Part shown: positions 1 through 61,736 of the stretch, piece after piece
How the letters are laid out: the number at the start of each line of letters is the position of its first letter
Numbering within the stretch: the first letter of the stretch is position 1
Source: Jacunavirus JC01
Lineage: Duplodnaviria; Heunggongvirae; Uroviricota; Caudoviricetes; Casjensviridae
IMG/VR virus record: IMGVR_UViG_2974716774_000001
Span: 1 to 61,736 of that record
Length of the DNA stretch: 61,736 bases
Direction: 5' to 3' (one strand)
Position numbers and translations under genes: made by a program
Notes under the pieces: generated by a model
The model's input: only the letters and a program-made list of their open reading frames with translations
What the model was told of the DNA's origin: nothing
The model's database searches: none

Positions 1-12
1 GGTGCGCAGAGC
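1..12. repeat. Terminal 12-bp direct repeat GGTGCGCAGAGC, left copy (putative cohesive end)
   Basis: Bases 1-12 are identical to bases 61725-61736; a lambda-gpA-like large terminase is encoded at 10651-12723. Confidence 0.6.
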
Positions 13-477
13 CGCGATTCGCGAAAAATTGCCGGTTCCTGTATAGCGCCGCCTTGAAAATCAGCAACTTACGTGGGGCCGCCGGTGGGCTTAGCGTAGC
101 TAACAGGATAATTTTTCAGAAATTCGTCGATAGCCCCGCATTGAAAGTTTTTATTTATCAGCGACTTACAGGCCGCGGTCATCTCGACGGCACAGTGTGT
201 TTCCGGAAACACAGATTTGCCGTATTAAGTGTGTCGGTCAAAAAGCCTTACTGTACAAGGATTTACTATACTCTTAACACACTAACACACAGACACACTT
301 AATGTGTATATAAGGTAAGTAGGTATTGTGTGATGATCGTAATGGCGTTTCACGTTACGTATTATATGTATGTATTAGCGAGTTTTGAGAGTAAGTGTGT
401 CATGGTGAAAGTGCCGAAAAAGTCATGCAGATCATAGGTTTACCCGGCACACCCATTTTTAGCGGAGGGTGTGTCGC

Positions 478-548: not shown

Positions 549-3182
549 TTACGCCCACGTATCGGCGACCTCCTTCGCGGCGCAAGACGCGATTTGTTCT
601 TCCAGGTGGAGTTTCATGGCGTCGTAGTCGATGGTGTCTTTGTCCTTCATCCACTTTTCAGGGTGGCGCATCCATACTGATCCACGAACCCCGTTGACGC
701 GCAGCTGAATACGCTTAACCGGCCCTTTCGAGTACCCCAGCGCTGACAGTCGTGATGCCACTCTGCTGTCACTAGGACGTATGTCACGGGGCACGCTGCG
801 CAGTAACAGTCCTGTGTGTATTAGCTCGTCCGTGACGCCCGCCACATCGTCAGACGCAATGGCGTCTTCCACGAAGTTCGTGAAGTCGTCCTGGGCGTTA
901 TCGATCATGTCGCTGGTGGCTTCAGTGAGCGGAGCAATACCGGAAGAGTGGTCGAAGTCCTCGCTGTATTCCCAGTCACGGAACCACAGCCGCAGCTCGC
1001 CAGCGCACGCCTTGAATGCCTTCTCGAAGTCTTTGAAGAAGCCGGGCTTGTCCTTCAGGAAAGCCATCGCGTCTTCCTTACTGCGAAAGCGAGACCGGAC
1101 TATCAGGAAACGACGGTCGCCATTGCTAATCGGCAGCGCGGCGATGTCGTTGGTGTACATCATCCAGCTGGCCGTGTTCACTTCGTCCTGACCTTCGCGG
1201 TTCTTCCTCTCGATGAAAAGCTGCTCGTTAGTGATAGGCTCCTTCAGGGAGTTAATGACGTCATAGCGGTGGCCCGCAACGCTGATTTCCTCGATGACCT
1301 TCAGCATCGACCCGGCCTGCCATCCCGTGAATGGCCGGTGGATAACCTGGTTGTTGACGGTGCCGACGTTTTCGCGGCCCAGCAGGTACGACATGAATTT
1401 CTTGATAATCGTCTTGCCGGAACCCTGGCCGCCGAGAATGACCAGCGAGTACGTCATGCGTTTGTTCGGGTTATTGATAACCCATGCCAGCCAGTCCATC
1501 GCGTGCCGGTACTCTTCCGGGTCGACGAACTGCGTGCGGAAAAAGTCCTGCACAATCTCAACGGCTTTAAGGCCTTTCTTAGAGATTTTCTCCGGCACTC
1601 CCGGCATCGTTTTCGGGTCAAACGTGTTCAGCCAGAGTTTTCCCTGCCACCGGAAAAAGTCTTCGCTTGGCACGCCGACCTCAGGCTTCCATGACGAACC
1701 TGGCATCCGGCCGTGCATGTCCGGGTAGTACATCATGCCGTGGATAATCGGCACCGGCCGCAAAGCGGTGGCGAATTGCTCAGGACTGCAGCCCATAAAT
1801 GCGGTATGCTGCGCCAGCGAGTTATTGAACGCGTGCGGCACCAGCGCAACTTTCGTCTCGCGGTTGATGAAGAGGTTATCTTTCTCGGCGTACACCCACG
1901 GCTCTATCCAGGCTGGCGCATCAAACTGCTTGTGGTCGACAGACAGTGCGTTGCGTTTGGTGGAAGCAGGGATTTTCTTGCCGGTAATACGTTTGTAGTT
2001 ATCACAGGCCAGCTCTACTGCGTGATCGCGAATGGTTCCCCAGACCGGTGTTTCGCGAAGTCGCTCAGCTGCGCGATCCCATTCGTACAGGTCTTCTGCC
2101 TGTTCGAACATCGGGATAACCCGCAGTAAGATGTCCTTTTCCATACGGGCATCCTCCACTTTCTTCACCAGACTTCTGACGGTGAAGGTGGCACCGCCGG
2201 TGCGGCGGAAATTCCCGTTATCCCATTTGTCGTTAAACGCGGCCTCGTCGTAGTTCGACGCGCGCGCTGACCACTCCTGCGCCAGCTCGCGAAACTCATC
2301 CTGCTCGCGCTCAGCGTCTTTGATGGCTGCGATGACCGGGAACCAGGCAGAATAGTCTTCCGCTGGTGGCAGGTCTTCCAGCAGGGCAGCAAACTCGGCG
2401 TACGTGCCGTCCCATTTATCTTTCGCGTCGTCTGCGTCTACCCAGTCGTCCTCGTCCACTTCGCCCAGGGCATCGGAGCGGTCTTCCGGCGCGCCGCCGA
2501 CGATTTTCCCGCGCTGCGGTGGCTCGTACAGCTTGTCGCCAGGCTGGATTTTTTCCCATCCCTGCTCCATCGCATAGCGGTCAAACTCATCCACGATGCG
2601 GCGCGCGTCGGCAAGGCTCAGCACTTCGAGATCCATGTCAGCGTGCATCGTCAGCGGCGTGTCTTTGCTGACCCACTGATACGGCTTCTGGGTGCCCGGG
2701 TGGATACCGAAGGCGACGAACTGCTGGCCAGCACCGAGGATTTCCACGGCGTTCTTCTCGCCGAAGTCATCGACCCAGCTGTGCGACTTCACTTTCGTGA
2801 ACGGTTCGTCAGCGCAGTAGACGAGCAGCGTTTTTGGCGCCCGGCCCACGCGAGCGGGTGCAAACCCCACGTTGGCTTCGATGAAATCGCGCATATGCTT
2901 CGCCGCGTCGACGTCCATGCAGTCAATATCGACCGCTGGCGTGAACCAGGTGCGGATGCCGATGCCGTAGCGGAAATATTTCTTCTGCCATTCCTCCAGC
3001 GCGTCTTCGTTAACTGCAACCGACTCCCAGTTTTTCATGAGCGGCGCTTTACCGGCCGCCTTGAAAGGCACCAGCTCACCGGTCTTTTTGTCGCGGATCT
3101 TCGCGTCAAGAGGGGAGATTGGAATAAAGGCATAGCCGTTTTCTAGCAACGTCCTGCCGTATTGCTGGAGATATCTTTTCAT
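549..3182 (-). CDS. DNA primase/helicase (P-loop NTPase, D5-like)
   Basis: 877-aa ORF; Walker A-like LVILGGQGSGKT; long N-terminal region preceding the NTPase domain; sits beside the polymerase module. Confidence 0.65.
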   Translation of the reverse strand: MKRYLQQYGRTLLENGYAFIPISPLDAKIRDKKTGELVPFKAAGKAPLMKNWESVAVNEDALEEWQKKYFRYGIGIRTWFTPAVDIDCMDVDAAKHMRDFIEANVGFAPARVGRAPKTLLVYCADEPFTKVKSHSWVDDFGEKNAVEILGAGQQFVAFGIHPGTQKPYQWVSKDTPLTMHADMDLEVLSLADARRIVDEFDRYAMEQGWEKIQPGDKLYEPPQRGKIVGGAPEDRSDALGEVDEDDWVDADDAKDKWDGTYAEFAALLEDLPPAEDYSAWFPVIAAIKDAEREQDEFRELAQEWSARASNYDEAAFNDKWDNGNFRRTGGATFTVRSLVKKVEDARMEKDILLRVIPMFEQAEDLYEWDRAAERLRETPVWGTIRDHAVELACDNYKRITGKKIPASTKRNALSVDHKQFDAPAWIEPWVYAEKDNLFINRETKVALVPHAFNNSLAQHTAFMGCSPEQFATALRPVPIIHGMMYYPDMHGRMPGSSWKPEVGVPSEDFFRWQGKLWLNTFDPKTMPGVPEKISKKGLKAVEIVQDFFRTQFVDPEEYRHAMDWLAWVINNPNKRMTYSLVILGGQGSGKTIIKKFMSYLLGRENVGTVNNQVIHRPFTGWQAGSMLKVIEEISVAGHRYDVINSLKEPITNEQLFIERKNREGQDEVNTASWMMYTNDIAALPISNGDRRFLIVRSRFRSKEDAMAFLKDKPGFFKDFEKAFKACAGELRLWFRDWEYSEDFDHSSGIAPLTEATSDMIDNAQDDFTNFVEDAIASDDVAGVTDELIHTGLLLRSVPRDIRPSDSRVASRLSALGYSKGPVKRIQLRVNGVRGSVWMRHPEKWMKDKDTIDYDAMKLHLEEQIASCAAKEVADTWA

Positions 3183-3460
3183 TCAAGCACCTCGCCTTCA
3201 GCATCAAACCGCATGGCTTCCGGCGCCATTAACCAGGTCGCCTTCACTCCCGAACCGCTGGCCGCCGAGGCGAGCGCGGTGGCAACACGGTATGACATGC
3301 GTCCGGCTTCCTGTGCTTTCAGTGCTGTGTGGTAATTCACATCGGCGAGGCGGGATAGTTGCTGCATTGACCCGTCCCGGTGGGCGTAGGCAGACATAAT
3401 CATGCACAGGTACTTCAGTCGCATGTATTTGTCTTTGCGTGCCCAGTCTGGAAAGCGCAT
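3179..3460 (-). CDS. Hypothetical protein, first gene of leftward operon (possible HTH)
   Basis: 93-aa ORF overlapping primase start by 4 nt; segment SMQQLSRLADVNYHTALKAQ looks helix-turn-helix-like. Confidence 0.45.
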   Translation of the reverse strand: MRFPDWARKDKYMRLKYLCMIMSAYAHRDGSMQQLSRLADVNYHTALKAQEAGRMSYRVATALASAASGSGVKATWLMAPEAMRFDAEGEVLE

Positions 3461-10073: not shown

Positions 10074-10667
10074 ATGGTGGCGAAAAACAAAAATGCACCG
10101 ATGGCGCTAAGGGCGCGCCGGTCTAACCAGAACGACTCTGAAACCGAGTCGATGATATTCCAGGGCGCGAACATCACGCAGCTCGGGAAACTGTTTCGCA
10201 TGGATCGCCGCGACATCACGCCGAAAATAATGGACGTGGCGCCGTGTGGCGAGCGCGGCGGATACCCCATCTACTACGTCCATGAAGTCGCGCCGCACCT
10301 GGTGAAGCCGATATACGACGTCGAGACCTACCTCAAGCGAATGCACCCGAACGATCTGCCAAAACATCTGACGAAAGAGTTTTGGGGCGGGATGCGCGCC
10401 AAGCAGGAGTACGACAAGGAAGCGGGCAACCTGTGGGAGACGGATAAAGTCATCGCGATAATGAGCGAAGTTTTCAAAGTCCTGCGAATGTCTATCCTGC
10501 TGGCCGGTGACACCGTGGAGCGCGAAATCGCTTTCACCGCTGAACAACGCGAGAAGCTTCGCGTTATTCTCGACGGCGCGCTGCAGGAATGCGCTAACGG
10601 CCTGGTAAACCGCTTCGGCCCTGAGGCTGAGAAAGAGCAGGAGCAGGACGATGACGACGAAATATAA
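10074..10667 (+). CDS. Terminase small subunit (Nu1-like, putative)
   Basis: 197-aa ORF immediately upstream of and overlapping the large terminase; N-terminal region resembles the lambda Nu1 winged-HTH; acidic C-terminus QDDDDEI. Confidence 0.5.
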   Translation: MVAKNKNAPMALRARRSNQNDSETESMIFQGANITQLGKLFRMDRRDITPKIMDVAPCGERGGYPIYYVHEVAPHLVKPIYDVETYLKRMHPNDLPKHLTKEFWGGMRAKQEYDKEAGNLWETDKVIAIMSEVFKVLRMSILLAGDTVEREIAFTAEQREKLRVILDGALQECANGLVNRFGPEAEKEQEQDDDDEI

Positions 10668-12723
10668 AAACCTCGCTGCGATAGTAGCAGACCTGGCGGA
10701 GCAGCTGCGGCCGCCGGAGCGTCTCACCGTTGCCGCTGCCGCCGAGAAATATCGTTTCGTCAACCAGCCGGGTGCCTACATCGGGCCGTGGCTTAATGAG
10801 ACCGCGCCGTACATGGTCGAGCCGATGAACGTCTTCGCCAGCCGCGAGTATAACCGCATGGCGTTCGTCGGCCCGGCGCAGTGCGGCAAAACGGACTCCC
10901 TCATCATTAACGGCGTGGCCTATTCGGTGAAAGTCGACCCGCTGGACACGATGGTTTTCTGCCCCACCAGCAACGCGGCGCGCGACTTCTCGATGCGCCG
11001 TATCGACCGTCTCCACATGCACAGCCCCGAGATCGGGATGATGCTGCGCAAAAGCCGCGACGCCGACAACAAATTCGACAAGCACTATGTAAACGGCATG
11101 ATGCTGACGCTCAGCTTCCCGTCGAAAACGGAGATGGCAGGCCGCCCGGTAGGCCGCATCATCATGACCGACTTCGACCGTATGCCGATGGACGTGGATG
11201 GCGACGGCAACCCGTTTGACCTGGCGTCAAAGCGTACGACGACGTTTAACTCATTCGCCATGTGCTGCGCGGAGTCCTCGCCTTCCCTGCCGCTGACCGA
11301 CCCAAACTGGATAGCCAAAGGCGAGCATGAAGCGCCGCCCTGCGAGGGCATTTTCGCGCTCTACAACCGAGGCGACCGTCGACGCTGGCAGTGGCCATGC
11401 CTGCACTGCTGGACGTGGTTCGAGGGCAAATTCGAACACCTGCAGTGGGATACTCGCGAAGGCCTGTCCAACGCCGAGCGCGGCGAAACCGTACGCATGG
11501 TCTGCCCGCACTGCGGCGTGGAGATCCACCCTGACGAACGTCACGAGATGCAGCAGTGGGGGATGTGGGTGCCGGAAGGATGCCGTGTCAACGAGAAGGG
11601 TCAGCTCACGGGTAAGCGCCCTCGCACGCAGTTCGCGTCTTTCTGGCTGCGCGGCACGGCGGCGGCATTCGCTCAGTGGCGCAGCCTCGTCACCACCTAC
11701 CTCGACGCGCTGGATGAATATGACCGCACGATGTCCGAAGAGGCGCTGAAGAAATTCTGGAACAACGACATGGGCGAAGTCTACCGCCCGAAAAGCCAGG
11801 AGTCTCTGCGCGTACCGGAGGCACTCAAAGCCCGGGCCGAGAAGCTGCCGGAGCAGATGGTACCGAATGGCGTGCGTTTCCTCGTGGCGACCGTCGACGT
11901 CCAGCAGAACCGTTTTGAGGTTATGGTGTCCGGAATAATGCCCGGCCAGCCTTTTGACGTTGTGCCGATTGACCGCTTTAAGATCGCCAAGTCCGAGCGA
12001 CTGGACGTGGACGGCGAGCGCCTGCCCATTAACAGCTCAGCCTACCTTGAGGACTGGCGCCTGCTGGAAGAACGGGTCATCAACGCGTCCTACCCGCTGG
12101 CTGATGGCTCCGGTCGTCGGATGCGCGTCAAGATAACGGGCTGTGACTCCGGCGGTAAAGCCGGTACCACCGACAAGGCGTACGACTTCTGGCGTGAGCA
12201 GCGTGACAAAGGCAACGCTGGCCGATTCATTCTGCTGAAAGGTGAGCCAAACGCTTCGGCGCCGCGTACTCGCGTGGGCTTCCCGGACAGCCAGCGCAAA
12301 GATAATAAATCCGCAGCACGCGGCGATATTCCCGTGTTGTTCATAAACTCTAACATGATGAAGGACAGTCTTAACGGACGACTGGACGTCATGGAGCCCG
12401 GGAAGGGCATGATTCACCTGGCGACGTGGATGCCGGATGCGTTCTTCTCGGAGCTGTGCGCCGAGGTCAGAACGGACAAGGGATGGCAAAACCCGAAAAA
12501 CCTGCGAAACGAAGCGTGGGATTTGCTGTATTATCAGCTCGCTCTCTGCGCTTCGCCCAAGCTGCTGGCTGTCGAGATGATGGACTGGGAGAACCCTGTC
12601 GGCTGGGCGGAAGAGTGGGATAAAAACGACCTCGTATCGCAGCCAGATGAAGGCGAGCGCTTCCAGATGAAGGCGAGCGAGGATAAGATAGATTTCGGCA
12701 AATTCGCCGAGGCGCTTGCGTGA
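10651..12723 (+). CDS. Terminase large subunit (lambda gpA family)
   Basis: 690-aa ORF; Walker A GPAQCGKT; size and organisation as lambda gpA; followed by gpW-like and portal genes. Confidence 0.85.
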   Translation: MTTKYKNLAAIVADLAEQLRPPERLTVAAAAEKYRFVNQPGAYIGPWLNETAPYMVEPMNVFASREYNRMAFVGPAQCGKTDSLIINGVAYSVKVDPLDTMVFCPTSNAARDFSMRRIDRLHMHSPEIGMMLRKSRDADNKFDKHYVNGMMLTLSFPSKTEMAGRPVGRIIMTDFDRMPMDVDGDGNPFDLASKRTTTFNSFAMCCAESSPSLPLTDPNWIAKGEHEAPPCEGIFALYNRGDRRRWQWPCLHCWTWFEGKFEHLQWDTREGLSNAERGETVRMVCPHCGVEIHPDERHEMQQWGMWVPEGCRVNEKGQLTGKRPRTQFASFWLRGTAAAFAQWRSLVTTYLDALDEYDRTMSEEALKKFWNNDMGEVYRPKSQESLRVPEALKARAEKLPEQMVPNGVRFLVATVDVQQNRFEVMVSGIMPGQPFDVVPIDRFKIAKSERLDVDGERLPINSSAYLEDWRLLEERVINASYPLADGSGRRMRVKITGCDSGGKAGTTDKAYDFWREQRDKGNAGRFILLKGEPNASAPRTRVGFPDSQRKDNKSAARGDIPVLFINSNMMKDSLNGRLDVMEPGKGMIHLATWMPDAFFSELCAEVRTDKGWQNPKNLRNEAWDLLYYQLALCASPKLLAVEMMDWENPVGWAEEWDKNDLVSQPDEGERFQMKASEDKIDFGKFAEALA

Positions 12724-43343: not shown

Positions 43344-43651
43344 GGCTGTTCACCTTTGCTGATGATTTCAAGGCCGTACTCGCGTATCGCCCGGATGAAC
43401 ACCTTATGCGGGATACGACGAGTGTTTTTGTGTTTCAGGCTGCGCGCCACCACTTCGCCCAGCTCCGGCGAATGGCTCACCACAACGGCACGGAACGCGG
43501 CATCCCGGCGAGGATAATCGTTCAGTATAAACTGGGTGCCGACAGGCAGCTGCGCTTTAAACTCGTTGGCCAGGTTAAGGGCTGCTACGCGCGCCGTGGC
43601 TTCTTTGACCAGCAGCGCGCGGCCGGTGGATGTGTTGGCTTTCACAATCAT
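43340..43651 (-). CDS. Hypothetical protein
   Basis: 103-aa ORF, 4-nt overlaps with both neighbours. Confidence 0.45.
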   Translation of the reverse strand: MIVKANTSTGRALLVKEATARVAALNLANEFKAQLPVGTQFILNDYPRRDAAFRAVVVSHSPELGEVVARSLKHKNTRRIPHKVFIRAIREYGLEIISKGEQP

Positions 43652-44025
43652 TTCAGTTCCTCCGCGATTTGTCTGGCGATGTGGTACAACGGGGCGACTT
43701 TGTTTGGAGCAATGCGCATTGCCGTTTCGAGGCAGCGCGGGATCGGGTCTTCACGACGCGCTTTGGGCCAGTACCACACGTATCCGTGAATGCGCGCTTC
43801 CCAGTAGCAATAGCGCAACGATTGGAGCTGGCTAATAATGCTGCTGTAAGACCGACCGAGCAGCAACGTCATGCGCTCAATGCTGTCGCCGCGCATCACA
43901 CACTTGATGAGGTATTCACGTTCGGCGTCGCTCCAGCGCGTCCGGGCACGCGGTGCAGGCCGTGGCGCGGTTAAGTAGACTGGCTCCAGCGGATAGTCAT
44001 CAAACAGTGAGTTTCTGGCTTTCAC
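43648..44025 (-). CDS. Hypothetical protein with possible HTH (candidate regulator)
   Basis: 125-aa ORF; segment WSDAEREYLIKCVMRGDSIERMTLLLGRSYSSIISQL looks helix-turn-helix-like. Confidence 0.4.
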   Translation of the reverse strand: MKARNSLFDDYPLEPVYLTAPRPAPRARTRWSDAEREYLIKCVMRGDSIERMTLLLGRSYSSIISQLQSLRYCYWEARIHGYVWYWPKARREDPIPRCLETAMRIAPNKVAPLYHIARQIAEELK

Positions 44026-44385: not shown

Positions 44386-44414
44386 ATTATGATTATACAC
44401 TTCATGTGTGTCAA
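44386..44414 (-). promoter_or_regulatory. Sigma70-type promoter with embedded dyad (family member)
   Basis: Minus strand TTGACA-CACATGAAGTGTATAAT-CATAAT; 17-nt spacer contains ACAC-N5-GTGT. Confidence 0.45.
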
Positions 44415-44982: not shown

Positions 44983-45011
44983 ATATAGATTACACACTAG
45001 AGGTGTGTCAA
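44983..45011 (-). promoter_or_regulatory. Sigma70-type promoter with embedded dyad (family member)
   Basis: Minus strand TTGACA-CACCTCTAGTGTGTAAT-CTATAT. Confidence 0.45.
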
Positions 45012-49988: not shown

Positions 49989-50017
49989 ATACTAATTACA
50001 CACTCTGCGTGTGTCAA
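49989..50017 (-). promoter_or_regulatory. Sigma70-type promoter with embedded dyad (family member)
   Basis: Minus strand TTGACA-CACGCAGAGTGTGTAAT-TAGTAT. Confidence 0.45.
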
Positions 50018-54044: not shown

Positions 54045-54581
54045 TTAAATCTTGTCACGGAGCCACTGGATCCCAGCGGACATGTATTTGACCTGATGAA
54101 TCGCATCATCGAGGGCGTTGTGGAATGTGCCTTCTCGTTCGAACTTCAACGGGTTTATGCCTGCCAGATCTACCGCCGTACGAACGTCGCGGATATTCCA
54201 GAATTTCCACGGTGTCGGAAGATGCAGCTGAGCGAACCACGCTTCCAGAATAGTGATGTCGAACACGGATCCGTTGCCCCAAACGAGGTCATTACCGTCC
54301 AGCCACTGAATGAATTTAAGGGCACTCTCGCGCGGGTTGTCGCTGCCATTAAACGCGTCCTGCTTAGCGGCGTCTGACTGTTTCTGCCACCATTCCAGGG
54401 TGTCGGGGTCAACGTGCCCGAAGGCGCGGGCATTTTCGTAGCCCATGCAGCAGTAGAACGTCTCACCGATCTCGCCCGTGTAGCGGTCGAAAGCCACGGC
54501 GCCGATGGACAGCACCGAACAGCCCGGGCTACGGCCGAGCGTCTCAATGTCGATCATTACGTCACGATGTTTCTTTTTCAC
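54045..54581 (-). CDS. DEDDh-type 3'-5' exonuclease (DnaQ-like)
   Basis: 178-aa ORF; Exo I IDIETLG, Exo III HNALDDA. Confidence 0.6.
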   Translation of the reverse strand: MKKKHRDVMIDIETLGRSPGCSVLSIGAVAFDRYTGEIGETFYCCMGYENARAFGHVDPDTLEWWQKQSDAAKQDAFNGSDNPRESALKFIQWLDGNDLVWGNGSVFDITILEAWFAQLHLPTPWKFWNIRDVRTAVDLAGINPLKFEREGTFHNALDDAIHQVKYMSAGIQWLRDKI

Positions 54582-55450
54582 CAGTCTTCTCCGAAAGGAT
54601 TACACTCTTCAGTGCAGTTACCCGGCGCATCTTCATACAACGGCCGGTAGTCATTATCGACTTCACTAAACGTCGCTATCAGGTCAGCGGCGCTACGGAA
54701 GCCCCGGTACATCTTGCGTGGCCCTTCGACCACATTTGGCCCGACGTCACCACAGCTTTTCTCCATTTCCGCCGCGGCGTGGAAGTATTCCGGATTGTCC
54801 TGGAAGGCCCGGAGCAGCTTCGCGTCAGACTTTTTAAAGCAGAAAACGCAGTTTCCGCAGTGCTCAGGTATCCCCAGGTCAAACGGCATAAACTCCCACC
54901 AGTCGAGCACATCTTCTTTCGTGGTTGGCCACCAGTGCGCCAGCGGGTACACCTTGTTTTGCCGGGTCTGGCGGTCAGGCTTTTTAGGCTTGATGCGCCG
55001 TGGTTCGTCAATGCGCATACCGACGGCTGTCAGGTATTCCCCTTTGGCCCAGCCCAGCGCCTCCCACAGATACCCGTGGATCGGTATCTCTTTCAGCTCC
55101 CGCGTGCAGTGCAGGTAGTTGGTGTTCGGTAGCCCATACTTCCGGCACATCTCGATGTAGGGCTCACCTTTGCGGCTGGCGGTCTCGTACGTCACTACCT
55201 TCCAGCCGGTGCGCACGCCTTTCTGCTCGTGCGTTATCGCCTCCACCCACACGGTATTGAAGCCCAGCTGAACGTCGCAGTTATGCACGAAGTCCAGCGT
55301 GGCCGGGTGCTCAAAGCCAGTGTTGGCGAAAAGCACTTTAATGTCGTACTCGTCTGACTTCTCCTGCAGCAGCCGGTACGTCATGTGCGCCGAGGTTCGG
55401 CCACCGGACATGGCGGCCACCAGCCGTGGTTTCATTTGTGATGCCCGCAC
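54578..55450 (-). CDS. PP-loop ATP pyrophosphatase superfamily protein (PAPS-reductase-like)
   Basis: 290-aa ORF; PP-loop-like AAMSGGRTSA near the N-terminus; cysteine pairs HCGNCVFC and NCTEEC. Confidence 0.55.
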   Translation of the reverse strand: MRASQMKPRLVAAMSGGRTSAHMTYRLLQEKSDEYDIKVLFANTGFEHPATLDFVHNCDVQLGFNTVWVEAITHEQKGVRTGWKVVTYETASRKGEPYIEMCRKYGLPNTNYLHCTRELKEIPIHGYLWEALGWAKGEYLTAVGMRIDEPRRIKPKKPDRQTRQNKVYPLAHWWPTTKEDVLDWWEFMPFDLGIPEHCGNCVFCFKKSDAKLLRAFQDNPEYFHAAAEMEKSCGDVGPNVVEGPRKMYRGFRSAADLIATFSEVDNDYRPLYEDAPGNCTEECNPFGEDW

Positions 55451-56208
55451 TTTGAACAGACCAGATAATCTTCCTGGTAGATGTCGGGACAGGAATGAGG
55501 AACCCAGTTGTGCTCACAGGGCTTCGTCTTTTCGCGGTCGATCCCGAGCGTCAGCGGGGCGATTTCATTCGGCATTATCTGGAAGTGGTTAGTCAGCGCG
55601 CCTGCGATGGCCATGCCTTCTTCCCGATCGATGCGTGTTTCGATGCGGGTCAGCAAGCCCTGCTGGAAGATGAATGAGGTTTCGCCCTGCACGTCGTCCA
55701 GCTGAATGACGCGAGGCATCTGATTGAGGTCGGGCAGCTTAAAGCTGGTGGTTTTTCCGCTGCCCTGCTGGCCGACACCGATGACGTCAGGACGGGATTT
55801 CCCCTGTTCCGGTGCGGCGGGCTTATATTGTCGATTCTCCATGCCGAGAAGCTTGAGTGCCTCATCGAAGAACATGATTTCCACCGAAAATCCCTCTGAC
55901 TCCAGTTTGTCGCGGGTTTTAGTGAGTTTTTCCTGACGTGCAACGTTCGTCAGAACCAGAAAGCGCCAGCCCAAAAGGGAGGTTTCGACCTGTTTGCCTG
56001 CAGCTCTGCACCGCGCAGCGAAAGAAGTCATGTTAATCAGATCCCGGAAATTTCCATCCCAGCTGTCGAGGACGCTTTTGCATTTAAGCTTCTCCTTAAG
56101 CGCATAGGCGTAGGTGGTTTTTCCGCAGCCCTGCGGGCCGACAACGATGACGAACGTCGGTCGGTCGCTGGTGACGGGAGGGATGGTGCTGCCATTATGT
56201 CGAATCAT
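55432..56208 (-). CDS. P-loop NTPase with two Walker-A motifs and C-terminal Cys/His zinc-ribbon-like tail
   Basis: 258-aa ORF; VGPQGCGKTT and VGQQGSGKTT; VIQLDD Walker-B-like; C-terminal CEHNWVPHSCP...CSKCGHH. Confidence 0.5.
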   Translation of the reverse strand: MIRHNGSTIPPVTSDRPTFVIVVGPQGCGKTTYAYALKEKLKCKSVLDSWDGNFRDLINMTSFAARCRAAGKQVETSLLGWRFLVLTNVARQEKLTKTRDKLESEGFSVEIMFFDEALKLLGMENRQYKPAAPEQGKSRPDVIGVGQQGSGKTTSFKLPDLNQMPRVIQLDDVQGETSFIFQQGLLTRIETRIDREEGMAIAGALTNHFQIMPNEIAPLTLGIDREKTKPCEHNWVPHSCPDIYQEDYLVCSKCGHHK

Positions 56209-56717: not shown

Positions 56718-56747
56718 AAAGATATAACTACACTTCGGATGTGTCAA
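56718..56747 (-). promoter_or_regulatory. Sigma70-type promoter with embedded dyad (family member) driving the leftward operon
   Basis: Minus strand TTGACA-CATCCGAAGTGTAG...TATATC about 30 nt upstream of the 56684 start. Confidence 0.45.
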
Positions 56748-57293: not shown

Positions 57294-57322
57294 TTGACAC
57301 ACTCCGGGTGTATCACTACTAT
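57294..57322 (+). promoter_or_regulatory. Sigma70-type promoter with embedded dyad (family member) driving rightward genes
   Basis: TTGACA-CACTCCGGGTGTATCAC-TACTAT. Confidence 0.45.
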
Positions 57323-57372: not shown

Positions 57373-57633
57373 ATGGAAAAGGTCTATCACACGCTCAAAG
57401 GCGAAACCCTTCAACACTGGCTCACCATTGCCATTATCCGCGATGTTTCCGGCGATGCACGTGTTGAAACGCGCAGCACGATCCATGTTAATAAAGTCTC
57501 CCCCGTCTCCTTCACCTGGGGCGCAGATTTTACCGACGCTGACATCCTGAATGATGGCGACCTTCTGCGCGTAGTTTACCAGCGCTACGGTCGTGACATT
57601 TTCACCGGTAAATATACCCGCGATTTTAATTAA
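57373..57633 (+). CDS. Hypothetical protein
   Basis: 86-aa ORF with RBS GAGG upstream. Confidence 0.4.
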   Translation: MEKVYHTLKGETLQHWLTIAIIRDVSGDARVETRSTIHVNKVSPVSFTWGADFTDADILNDGDLLRVVYQRYGRDIFTGKYTRDFN

Positions 57634-59104: not shown

Positions 59105-59279
59105 GATTGAAACGCGCGGCGGCATGTTGCTACGCGCGCCGCTCGATGCGATATCCGTTATCGAGGAAACCGGATCGTTGCGCGCTGAATGGGACATGCG
59201 GCATGTGTTGATTCATAATCCGCGCTTCCTGTACACGGTCAGGCCCGGCGATATCAAATCAATTCAGTATTCCCAATAG
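59091..59279 (+). CDS. Hypothetical small protein
   Basis: 62-aa ORF overlapping the upstream gene; followed by a terminator. Confidence 0.35.
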   Translation: MRSVKIETRGGMLLRAPLDAISVIEETGSLRAEWDMRHVLIHNPRFLYTVRPGDIKSIQYSQ

Positions 59280-59303
59280 CCCGCATCGCGGGCTTTTTTA
59301 TTT
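59278..59303 (+). terminator. Rho-independent terminator
   Basis: Stem AGCCCGC / GCGGGCT, loop ATC, followed by TTTTTTATTT. Confidence 0.65.
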
Positions 59304-59372
59304 CCGATCCGCGACGAACGCCCTAGTTTTGGATAGCTCGCTAACTATCACATCACGAAAATAAATGATTGT

Positions 59373-59401
59373 TTGACACACTTCAGGTGTATCATTAATA
59401 T
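59373..59401 (+). promoter_or_regulatory. Sigma70-type promoter with embedded dyad (family member)
   Basis: TTGACA-CACTTCAGGTGTATCAT-TAATAT. Confidence 0.45.
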
Positions 59402-59846: not shown

Positions 59847-59876
59847 TTGACACACTCGGTGTATGTCATGTATATT
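59847..59876 (+). promoter_or_regulatory. Sigma70-type promoter with embedded dyad (family member)
   Basis: TTGACA-CACTCGGTGTATGTCATG-TATATT. Confidence 0.4.
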
Positions 59877-60707: not shown

Positions 60708-61115
60708 ATGTCTATTGCAACTATCCCCCGTTACTATGTGCGCCTTGTGCGCCCGCATCGCCTGGAGCCGGGCCAGAAAATCATGGTTGAGGTCAAAACG
60801 CTGGTGCCGCTTGAGCCAATGACGCTAAACCGTCGTACCGTGTCGCGGTCTGACTGGCGCGTCGTTACCGTGGATGACGTGGAGTTTTTCGGCTCGCATG
60901 TCCTGGTGAATTGGTCGTATGACGATGAGCGCTACAACCGGGAAACCGAAAGATTTGATCCGCGCGTCAAATACGGCGCTATCCGCTACGATGCCGTGGA
61001 GCAATACGCGCCGCTCGTGCTTGCCTGGATCGAGGGCACCGAAAAAGAAAAACGCATCTGCATAGAAAATCGCGAGGCAAAGTACGGCATCTTTCCGCGT
61101 GACCGCTTCCGATAG
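60708..61115 (+). CDS. Hypothetical protein
   Basis: 135-aa ORF, last rightward gene before the terminal non-coding region. Confidence 0.45.
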   Translation: MSIATIPRYYVRLVRPHRLEPGQKIMVEVKTLVPLEPMTLNRRTVSRSDWRVVTVDDVEFFGSHVLVNWSYDDERYNRETERFDPRVKYGAIRYDAVEQYAPLVLAWIEGTEKEKRICIENREAKYGIFPRDRFR

Positions 61116-61156
61116 CTGATATCCATTCCTTCCCGTCTCTCATCCGGCCCGCCCTG

Positions 61157-61183
61157 CGCGGGCTTTTTTATTTCCGCTATTCC
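61157..61183 (+). terminator. Rho-independent terminator
   Basis: Stem GCCCGC / GCGGGC, loop CCTGC, followed by TTTTTTATTT; near-copy of the 59278-59303 terminator. Confidence 0.65.
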
Positions 61184-61343
61184 GCCACGCTTTGACCTTT
61201 ATCCGACTTGTGCGACGAACGCCCTGGTTTTGGATTCAATTCTAATTATCACGCATGTTATTAGTTAGCCGTGCCCGTTGCCACGTTGCAGCGTGCGCCC
61301 TGCGATGCGCCCTGTAAGCGGGCCTGTGATACGGGCCAGTGCT

Positions 61344-61445
61344 CACACACTTCGGATGTGTCATGGGTGGCTGTGGTGCTGACACTTCGGATGTATCAAA
61401 GGCGCGGTGTGATTGTGACACGTTGATACACATGGAATGTGTCAT
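61344..61445. promoter_or_regulatory. Cluster of TGACAC/GTGTCA dyad elements (operator-like or packaging-recognition sites)
   Basis: CACACACTTCGGATGTGTCA (61344-61363), TGACACTTCGGATGTATCA (about 61380-61398), GTGACACGTTGATACACA and AATGTGTCATG (about 61412-61445). Confidence 0.4.
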
Positions 61446-61724
61446 GCCTGCGGCTGTGCTGTGGTACGGATGATGCCGCGTGCCCTGGTGTGGTGGGCTG
61501 GTGGATAGCCCTGATAATACCCTTTCTCCTGATGTTCTGTGATGCGGTGTGACAACCGCACTATCTGATGCCCATAGAAGGCCGATAAACGAGGCTGTGC
61601 GGGCCGATCTATGCTGTGCCTATGATACCCTATTGCTTCTGTGCTTGCGTGGCGTGTGGTGCGCGCTGTGCGTTATTCCGCGAAAGCCGAAAAGGTACTT
61701 CCCCGGCCAGGCCGGAAAGCCGGG

Positions 61725-61736
61725 GGTGCGCAGAGC
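61725..61736. repeat. Terminal 12-bp direct repeat GGTGCGCAGAGC, right copy (putative cohesive end)
   Basis: Exact copy of bases 1-12 at the last 12 positions of the window. Confidence 0.6.

Follow-up and report, generated by a model that had tools for sequence, protein, structure and literature searches.

The stretch of DNA considered here, called the window throughout, is the whole of IMG/VR record IMGVR_UViG_2974716774_000001 (61,736 nucleotides), assigned to Jacunavirus JC01 of the Casjensviridae, and the element in question is the non-coding tract at its right end, which lies between the last gene and the cohesive-end (cos) site. The same 12 bases stand at both ends of the window and are exactly the 5′ cohesive end of phage Chi, GGTGCGCAGAGC, as determined by primer extension (PMC4342425). 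Since the end of the window equals the published Chi end, position 61724 is taken as the true right end, adjoining cosN, in agreement with a preliminary description of this DNA that had placed the tract next to a putative cos site. As read from its letters, the window represents a single complete cos genome, 61,724 bp long, in which the cohesive end appears twice. Its left 8 kb matches other Casjensviridae, the best match being Salmonella phage SLP-22 (Jacunavirus; 71% identity over 83% of the query), followed by Chi-like phages with 66-69% identity. Genes of the window include those for a Prim-Pol primase, a family A DNA polymerase, a lambda-type portal, a large terminase of the lambda gpA type (10651-12723; GpA_ATPase, E = 3e-64; GpA_nuclease, E = 6e-63) and a small terminase (10074-10667; phrog_141, E = 2e-51). 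The defined 12-nt 5′ cohesive end and the gpA-family large terminase with its small terminase would place the site among the lambda-type cos sites. Across cos, 61116-61724 and 1-548 form one intergenic region of ~1.15 kb between converging, terminated transcription units, whose terminators are at 61146-61164 (plus strand) and 514-499 (minus strand). The small genes adjoining the right end are presumably early genes, by synteny with phage JS26, whose first 13 genes point toward its early-gene terminus as the early genes do here. A transposon-sequencing (Tn-seq) preprint on JS26 reports early-gene expression within 5 min and infers that the end with these genes is injected first (10.64898/2025.12.19.695335); by analogy, the right end of the window probably enters the cell first.

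The last open reading frame (ORF) with a gene-like context spans 60708-61115 and is followed by a terminator-like hairpin with a T-run (Table 1). Since this ORF stops at 61115, the non-coding tract begins at 61116; the preliminary description was right about its content and about its position after the last gene and terminator, and placed its start too far to the right, at 61184. A Rfam search of the window returned no family, PHROG gave zero matches for any small ORF in the tract, including the minus-strand ORF at 61242-61445, and six-frame tblastn against the right ends of 13 relatives found similarity only where the DNA itself is conserved; the tract thus holds as non-coding and that ORF as spurious, as had been supposed. 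A blastn search with the right end (637 bp) against 50,697 phage records gave no match, and the protein of the last gene has no relatives in IMG/VR. The top-strand bias toward G and T is likewise borne out: G+T amounts to 57.5% in 61184-61724 vs 49.5% elsewhere, which is the 99.3rd percentile of 541-bp windows (the maximum elsewhere in the genome is 59%, at 56167), with a G+C content of 53-58% in the tract. The short repeats described earlier are truly enriched, CTGTG occurring at ~23-fold the rate of the rest of the genome and TGTGC, TGTGA and GTGTG at 12- to 19-fold; CTGTG is not kept at the aligned columns of relatives, and G+T richness at -300 to -150 is family-wide. The two ATACCC motifs are found at 61516 and 61625, the second of them inside a block conserved in relatives. 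Taken as a whole, the tract is given even odds of being a composite cis-acting region tied to cos and made of two parts of different kind.

Table 1. Features of the right-end tract, of the related promoters and of the left end of the window.
Feature	Positions	Strand	Basis or remark
Intrinsic-terminator-like hairpin and T-run closing the rightward, presumably early, operon	61146-61170	+	Terminator scan
Paralogue of the terminator/upstream-element/promoter module 59287-59401	61157-61306	+	blastn against the rest of the genome and pairwise alignment
Nine CTGTG, mostly GCTGTG[CG]	61324-61670	all +	G+T-rich body of the tract
Dyad copy 1, with the 17-mer ACACTTCGGATGTGTCA at 61347-61363	61343-61365	.	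Identical to promoter core 56730-56746; no -10 on either strand
Dyad copy 2, TGACACTTCGGATGTATCA	61378-61400	.	-35-like hexamer on either strand (CTGACA / TTGATA); no -10
Composite dyad copy 3, TGACACGTTGATACAC overlapping ACACATGGAATGTGTCA	61416-61444	.	No -10
Family-conserved non-coding block	61453-61707	.	~63% identity to the Chi and BP12C right ends, blastn E = 4e-11
AAAAGGTACTT box	61690-61700	+	At -35, 25 bp before cosN; no variation among the Chi-like right ends examined
Inverted repeat CCCCGGC / GCCGGGG	61701-61707 / 61719-61725	.	3′ arm enters the first base of cosN
cosN cohesive end, GGTGCGCAGAGC	61725-61736, also 1-12	+	Equals the Chi end
Putative early promoter TTGACA-cactccgggtgtatcac-TACTAT	57294-57322	+	Carries the dyad; upstream of the ATG at 57373
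Putative early promoter TTGACA-cacttcaggtgtatcat-TAATAT	59373-59401	+	Carries the dyad
Probable early promoter	59847-59875	+	Core-similarity scan
Leftward promoter TTGACA-catccgaagtgtagtta-TATCTT	56719-56747	-	Core equals terminal copy 1
Leftward promoter TTGACA-cacatgaagtgtataat-CATAAT	44386-44414	-	-35 at 44414
Leftward promoters of the same class	44983-45011; 49989-50017	-	-35 at 45011 and 50017
cosB-like direct-repeat units ATAGC[GC]CCGC..TTGAAA..ATCAGCNACTTAC	36-72, 123-169	+	Each with an IHF consensus
Matches to the IHF consensus WATCARNNNNTTR	59-71, 156-168	+	Two of only four in the whole window
Single promoter-less dyad ACACACTTAATGTGTAT, 15/17 to the promoter core	293-309	.	Core-similarity scan; within the 190-480 region
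Intrinsic-terminator-like signal of the left unit	514-499	-	Terminator scan

The distal part of the tract (61278-61445) is an array of four to five dyad copies. The dyad cluster that had been noticed in this region is real, with three copies of ACACTTCGGATGTGTCA at 61347, 61382 and 61428. Allowing up to three mismatches, this 17-mer has seven matches vs 0.14 expected: the three terminal ones and four others (44397, 56730, which is exact, 57299 and 59378), all four lying inside sigma-70-type promoters directly upstream of genes. A blind scan for TTGACA-N17-TAnnnT returned the promoters at 44414, 56747, 57294 and 59373 and, in addition, one at 50017(-), all five with a CAC..GTGTAT spacer, and a genome scan by core similarity added 45011(-) and 59847(+). 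The core of these sites is the near-palindrome TTGACAC-N7-GTGTCAA, one half of which is the -35 hexamer, so that it overlaps the -35 and the spacer in the seven promoters. A dyad-symmetric site common to several promoters and overlapping core promoter elements has the properties of an operator, and the dyads are accordingly candidate members of this class; the earlier suggestion that the region might be regulatory fits them. The promoter class TTGACA-CAC-N5-GTGTAT-NAT-TAnnnT drives both the rightward small genes (early by synteny) and a leftward block at 42-57 kb, and the replication-gene promoters near 3.5-3.7 kb are without the dyad.

The terminal copies resemble the promoters in the core and not in the rest. 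Within the 17-base core they share 14-15 bases with the promoters; over TTG and the -10 the agreement is 10 of 36, the level of chance, a contrast inflated by selection since the copies compared were picked by core similarity. With a spacer of 17 bp, the place of the -10 is taken by CACTGG, CCACAG and CGTGTC on the minus strand and by GGGTGG, AGGCGC and GCCTGC on the plus strand. The possibility that the copies are working sigma-70 promoters was rejected: no -10 is found on either strand at spacings of 16-18 bp, and a promoter scan finds none. Lacking this hexamer, they would be unable to start transcription. By eye, none of the matches to sigma-28 or sigma-54 promoters in the terminal copies was convincing, and among the sites of the host regulators CRP, FNR, LexA, Fis, PhoB and MarA, compared without a formal scan, none fits the dyads. 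As a single strand, 61335-61450 folds like its shuffles (z = 0.03), and in the absence of unusual single-strand stability a duplex protein site is the natural reading of the dyads.

The same pattern was looked for in relatives. Because direct similarity searches found none, relatives were collected by exact cos patterns (the first 15 left-end bases, the AAAAGGTACTT box, and both combined), and GenBank records of the phages Chi, SP-030, KPN N98, Smarc5 and JS26 were added. In Chi, 59144-59341 contains four copies of the right-end motif GATATACGCGGCGTGCGT, the same sequence as the spacer in the early promoters at 54171(+) and 56806(+); the spacers of four leftward Chi promoters are related to it. 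The Chi terminal copies match its promoters at 64 of 68 core positions vs 11 of 36 TTG and -10 positions. In the Klebsiella phage KPN N98, the terminal TTGCAC..GTGCA dyads resemble its early promoters at 417 and 2078, and in the Serratia phage Smarc5 terminal copies and promoters both carry ..CGACGTAT.. In all five lineages (the window, the IMG/VR relative L157, Chi, KPN N98 and Smarc5), arrays of three to four copies are found at the same place, -450 to -250, and the summed similarity of the three best distal sites to the promoter cores of the same phage exceeds that of all 200 shuffles. The best terminal-copy matches face inward in the window, Chi and KPN N98, and copy 3 of Smarc5, by reading, best outward; since the dyads are near-palindromic, this orientation was given no weight. 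Promoter scans of the relatives L159, L053 and L076 and of the JS26 early arm were uninformative.

Changes within clades point in the same direction. SP-030 has GGTATAC (an A-to-G change) in 4/4 terminal copies and in its early-promoter site at 54983; BP12C has GATATAC in 4/4 terminal copies and in both early-promoter sites, and Chi in 3/4 terminal copies and both early-promoter sites. In five phages of the Klebsiella clade the half-sites TTGCAC and GTGCA are invariant and the centres vary. The invariant half-sites and the concerted change of SP-030 argue for selection on the core. At the early-gene terminus of JS26 (L167, MN505213), the reverse complement of ~165-275 is non-coding and contains three direct repeats of ~20 bp (GTATCAGATAGCCCGATCATC); these contain ATAGCCC, the core of the left-end repeat units of the window, and the JS26 record is without the Chi-type cos sequence.

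The proximal part of the tract, about 61453-61724, is of another nature. A comparison with the right ends of related genomes, which the preliminary description had proposed as a check, was carried out by aligning eleven right ends that come from several genera, and the ~270 bp next to cosN are conserved across genera. Among the conserved elements are GGTGTGAC (61546-61553) and a ..CGATC.. block, represented in the window by GGCCGAT at 61580 and 61602; CCTATGATACCCTA is common to the window and its closest metagenomic relative. The inverted repeat at cosN is CCCGG/CCGGG in most relatives, and in L053 it is CCGC/GCGG, both arms being altered together. No conserved ORF was found in this block by tblastn against relatives; RNAalifold gave no consensus structure for the cos-proximal ~200 nt (-8 kcal/mol, with a positive covariation term), and the single-strand folding of the cos-proximal hairpin does not exceed that of shuffles (z = -0.21). 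The terminase is of the gpA type and the structural genes read from left to right, which by analogy would give the lambda arrangement, with a cosB-like element on the left of cosN and a cosQ-like one on the right; the right end would then be packaged last. The proximal part is thus probably that half of a lambda-type cos which lies on the cosQ side, where it most likely has a role in cutting by terminase and in ending packaging, and the AAAAGGTACTT box, by its position and conservation, is a candidate cosQ-like element.

From these data, the explanation judged best, with a probability of about one half, is that the tract joins a distal array of auxiliary or decoy operators to a proximal lambda-type cos flank. 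A dimeric regulator would occupy the dyad in early and middle promoters and, since the dyad lies between the -35 and the -10, would most simply be a repressor. The same regulator would also bind the terminal array, whose copies could not fire. As a sink, the array might then delay shut-off; it might form loops with the promoters 2-5 kb away; or, as a roadblock beyond the early terminator, it might hold polymerase away from cos. It lies on the DNA end that probably enters first, just downstream of the terminator of the early operon. What the sequences show is the layout of the tract, its identity with the promoters, the missing -10, the conservation among lineages and a partial co-variation; protein binding, the identity of the binder, the direction of its effect, the packaging direction and the end that is injected first are what we infer here. 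Given that Chi and SLP-22 have different dyads and are both Salmonella phages, the regulator is probably encoded by the phage. An injection leader, which the preliminary description had also suggested, is plausible by position.

Several points weigh against this explanation. The candidate binders amount to a gp3-like protein of 93 aa (3179-3460, minus strand) and an HTH-like protein of 125 aa (43648-44025, minus strand). The former is named a transcriptional regulator in the Chi record and has 34-35% identity between lineages; the latter has a weak HTH match in PHROG, and its gene lies a short way downstream of the 44414 promoter. Pfam and PHROG scans of ~45 ORFs gave nothing decisive on the regulator, and searches of the Protein Data Bank (PDB) with both candidates returned no relative. 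Only the window and the Chi clade show clear lineage-specific co-variation: the terminal copies score 43 against their own promoters and 38 against those of the best other lineage in the window, and 50 and 44 in Chi, while the difference is marginal in KPN N98 (39 and 38), tied in Smarc5 (40 and 40, the latter with Chi) and absent in L157 (37 and 37). The promoter core is partly family-wide (TTGACA-YAC..GTRTAT), and some of the resemblance between terminal copies and promoters is thus simply promoter-like. The explanation also leaves the nine same-strand CTGTG and the G+T bias unaccounted for, and on the proximal side the cosQ assignment draws solely on position and conservation. Finally, the tract opens with a paralogue of an internal module, so that the copies could be duplication relics homogenised by recombination.

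This last point leads to the first alternative, in which the distal tract consists of decaying relics of duplicated terminator-promoter modules whose accessory genes were lost, with no present role. The paralogy is clear: 61157-61176 equals the terminator tail at 59287-59306 (20/20), 61212-61235 matches 59311-59334 (23/24), and the stretch closes with a degraded promoter-like sequence, TTGCCA(61278-61283)-N17-TGCGAT(61301-61306), in which 61282-61295 form the dyad CACG..CGTG. This duplicated module at the tract start shows how the terminal array may have arisen. The degraded -35 and -10 hexamers and the high variability of the early region among relatives also suit relics. Neutral decay, however, should affect core and hexamers alike, and the cores are 78-94% identical to promoters where the TTG and -10 positions are at chance; moreover, the arrays recur at one place in the five lineages, the half-sites of the Klebsiella clade are invariant around variable centres, and the A-to-G change of SP-030 is shared with its promoter. 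A tract of relics is consequently regarded as unlikely.

Doubtful as well, and a little more so, is the idea of the array as a timer or decoy proper, in which the promoter-less cores would soak up the first regulator molecules or would hold host RNA polymerase through its -35-binding domain. If this were true, the array would set the time of early shut-off or would shield or anchor the entering end, as a titration device made from disabled promoters.

The preliminary description itself favoured small-terminase recognition sites of the cosB type, which would load terminase beside cosN. In support of this, the tract adjoins cosN and its proximal ~270 bp are conserved, GATAGCCC at 61504 is an octamer found three times in the whole genome, one of them in left-end unit B, GGCCGAT occurs twice (61580 and 61602), and JS26 has its three direct 20-mers with ATAGCCC at the equivalent end. 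Nonetheless, such an assignment of the repeats and dyads is not supported. The N-terminal half of the small terminase is ~80% identical in the window, Chi and KPN N98, lineages whose dyads differ, and such conservation fits conserved recognition sequences and not variable ones. The dyads, moreover, are not confined to the vicinity of cosN but are found in promoters at 44.4, 45.0, 50.0, 56.7, 57.3, 59.4 and 59.8 kb, that is, 2-17 kb from cos. It is the left side of cosN that has the repeat-plus-IHF architecture, as agrees with a lambda gpA-type terminase and structural genes that read from left to right. There, the repeat units are kept in Chi, in Klebsiella phages and in a soil-metagenome relative, and IHF matches recur at ~+59 and/or +156 in relatives, though not both in every one; by analogy with lambda, 36-169 would hold the putative cosB-like loading sites for small terminase and IHF. 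Terminase sites in the right-end tract are for these reasons held to be improbable, and the idea survives, weakly, for the proximal part and not for the dyads.

Beyond these units, the left end contains a region with iterons and AT-rich DNA at 190-480, beside the primase gene, in which ACACAC 8-mers form a tandem of three at 276-299 and GTGTGTC is found in inverted orientation at 229, 395 and 469; it is a probable replication origin. The left 8-mer is specific to the lineage (GTTACAAG in Chi, GGTAACAG in SP-030, ATTACAAG or GTAACAA in Klebsiella phages) and changes along with the module of primase C-terminus and gp1, not with the right-end dyads. In this sense, the right-end dyads could be thought of as a second origin element, similar to the ori/crr pair of P4, with one initiator acting on left iterons and right dyads. 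The left iterons GACACAC and GTGTGTC do resemble the dyad half-site, TGTGTCATGG is found at both ends, and the Prim-Pol/DUF5906 primase gene abuts the left iteron and AT-rich region. On the other hand, the relatives L054 and L160 share right dyads and differ in left iterons, the iterons of Chi and SP-030 differ where their dyads barely do, and the k-mers common to the two ends of one phage are no more numerous than those common to ends of different phages (no diagonal signal in the matrix). A single protein for left iterons and right dyads was discarded as a general rule on the k-mer matrix and on L054 and L160. The tract, with its 53-58% G+C, also lacks an AT-rich unwinding element, and its repeats are dyads and not the tandem iterons of an iteron origin. 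A second origin element is thus judged very improbable.

The two remaining alternatives have hardly any likelihood. Small-RNA hairpins, or hairpins in DNA that is exposed as a single strand in injection or packaging, would agree with a dyad symmetry that the lineages preserve through paired changes (window ACAC/GTGT, Chi ACGC/GCGT, Klebsiella clade GCAC/GTGC), but the folding values given above are those of shuffled sequence, neither RNAalifold in the cos-proximal ~200 nt nor Rfam provides a structure, a terminator precedes the tract and no promoter reads into it. A RecBCD countermeasure, in which the G+T-rich top strand and an oriented Chi octamer protect the first-exposed end, is just as remote: GCTGGTGG does lie at 61497-61504(+), 228 bp from the end and oriented as RecBCD entering at that end would read it, the genome has 32 such octamers (21 plus, 11 minus) vs ~3 expected from shuffles, and the equivalent stretch is G+T-rich family-wide, but the octamer is in none of the right ends of relatives, it is the only one within one mismatch of Chi in the tract, and the strand bias of 21 vs 11, by the author's own count, largely follows gene direction.

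The reading of the tract as terminal operators joined to a cos flank has practical implications. Chi-like phages of Salmonella, Klebsiella, Serratia and Proteus are common, and therapy and engineering work makes use of them. For the rebooting or trimming of their genomes, the conserved ~270 bp before cosN and the ~170 bp after it should be kept. A defined promoter class with an embedded putative operator would be useful for timing studies, and the terminal array offers a testable case of disabled promoters retained as putative binding sites on the leading DNA end. Caution is also needed with databases, in which several deposited genomes of the family lack or misjoin the cos-flanking region. 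The SLP-22 deposit OR699283.2 (L001/L002), labelled as a complete genome, is without cosN and its flanks, its record end, within a right-end dyad, being joined to the left end at a point ~215 bp inside it, as the IMG/VR contig L063, which starts at cos, shows when the two are compared, and the SP-030 record is without ~68 bp of the right end.

The literature that was searched contains no description of the cos-flanking DNA or of the promoters of Chi-like phages, and the closest comparisons come from other systems. The cos site of lambda (cosQ-cosN-cosB, with IHF site I1 and the R sites of gpNu1) has the same 12-nt 5′ cohesive end, gpA-type terminase and lambda-type portal, with IHF-bearing repeats on one side of cosN and a short conserved box ~35 bp upstream on the other. 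The cosQ of lambda has 7 bp, whereas the conserved cosQ-side DNA here covers ~270 bp; the terminase genes of the window are ~10 kb from cos, and the likeness is one of sequence. The operators (OB) of KorB in plasmid RK2 and the dispersed centromere sites of N15 are palindromes for one protein, some at the -35 and others far away with a second role, and the dyads of the window are similarly palindromic sites for one putative protein, at the -35 and away from promoters. The difference is that no ParB- or KorB-like protein was found among the window proteins scanned, and plasmid maintenance has no support. T7, with its A1-A3 promoters, and T5, with its first-step-transfer repeats, also have a repeat-rich non-coding tract with promoter-type sequences at the end that enters first, an entry order that is deduced here from JS26; in T7 the promoters are complete and drive entry, while in the window the copies lack a -10 and the early promoters point toward the end, not inward. 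In mycobacteriophage L5, the repressor gp71 binds the early promoter Pleft and many promoter-less sites. These sites are said, in work by Brown et al. from 1997, to include some near the cos end that carries the early promoter. The stoperators of L5 and other cluster A phages are 13-bp, asymmetric, orientation-dependent and dispersed through the genome for prophage silencing, whereas the sites of the window are near-palindromes of ~19 bp grouped together at the terminus, and the phage family is regarded as lytic; what both systems have in common is one sequence placed over the -35 of early promoters and again at promoter-less sites in non-coding DNA.

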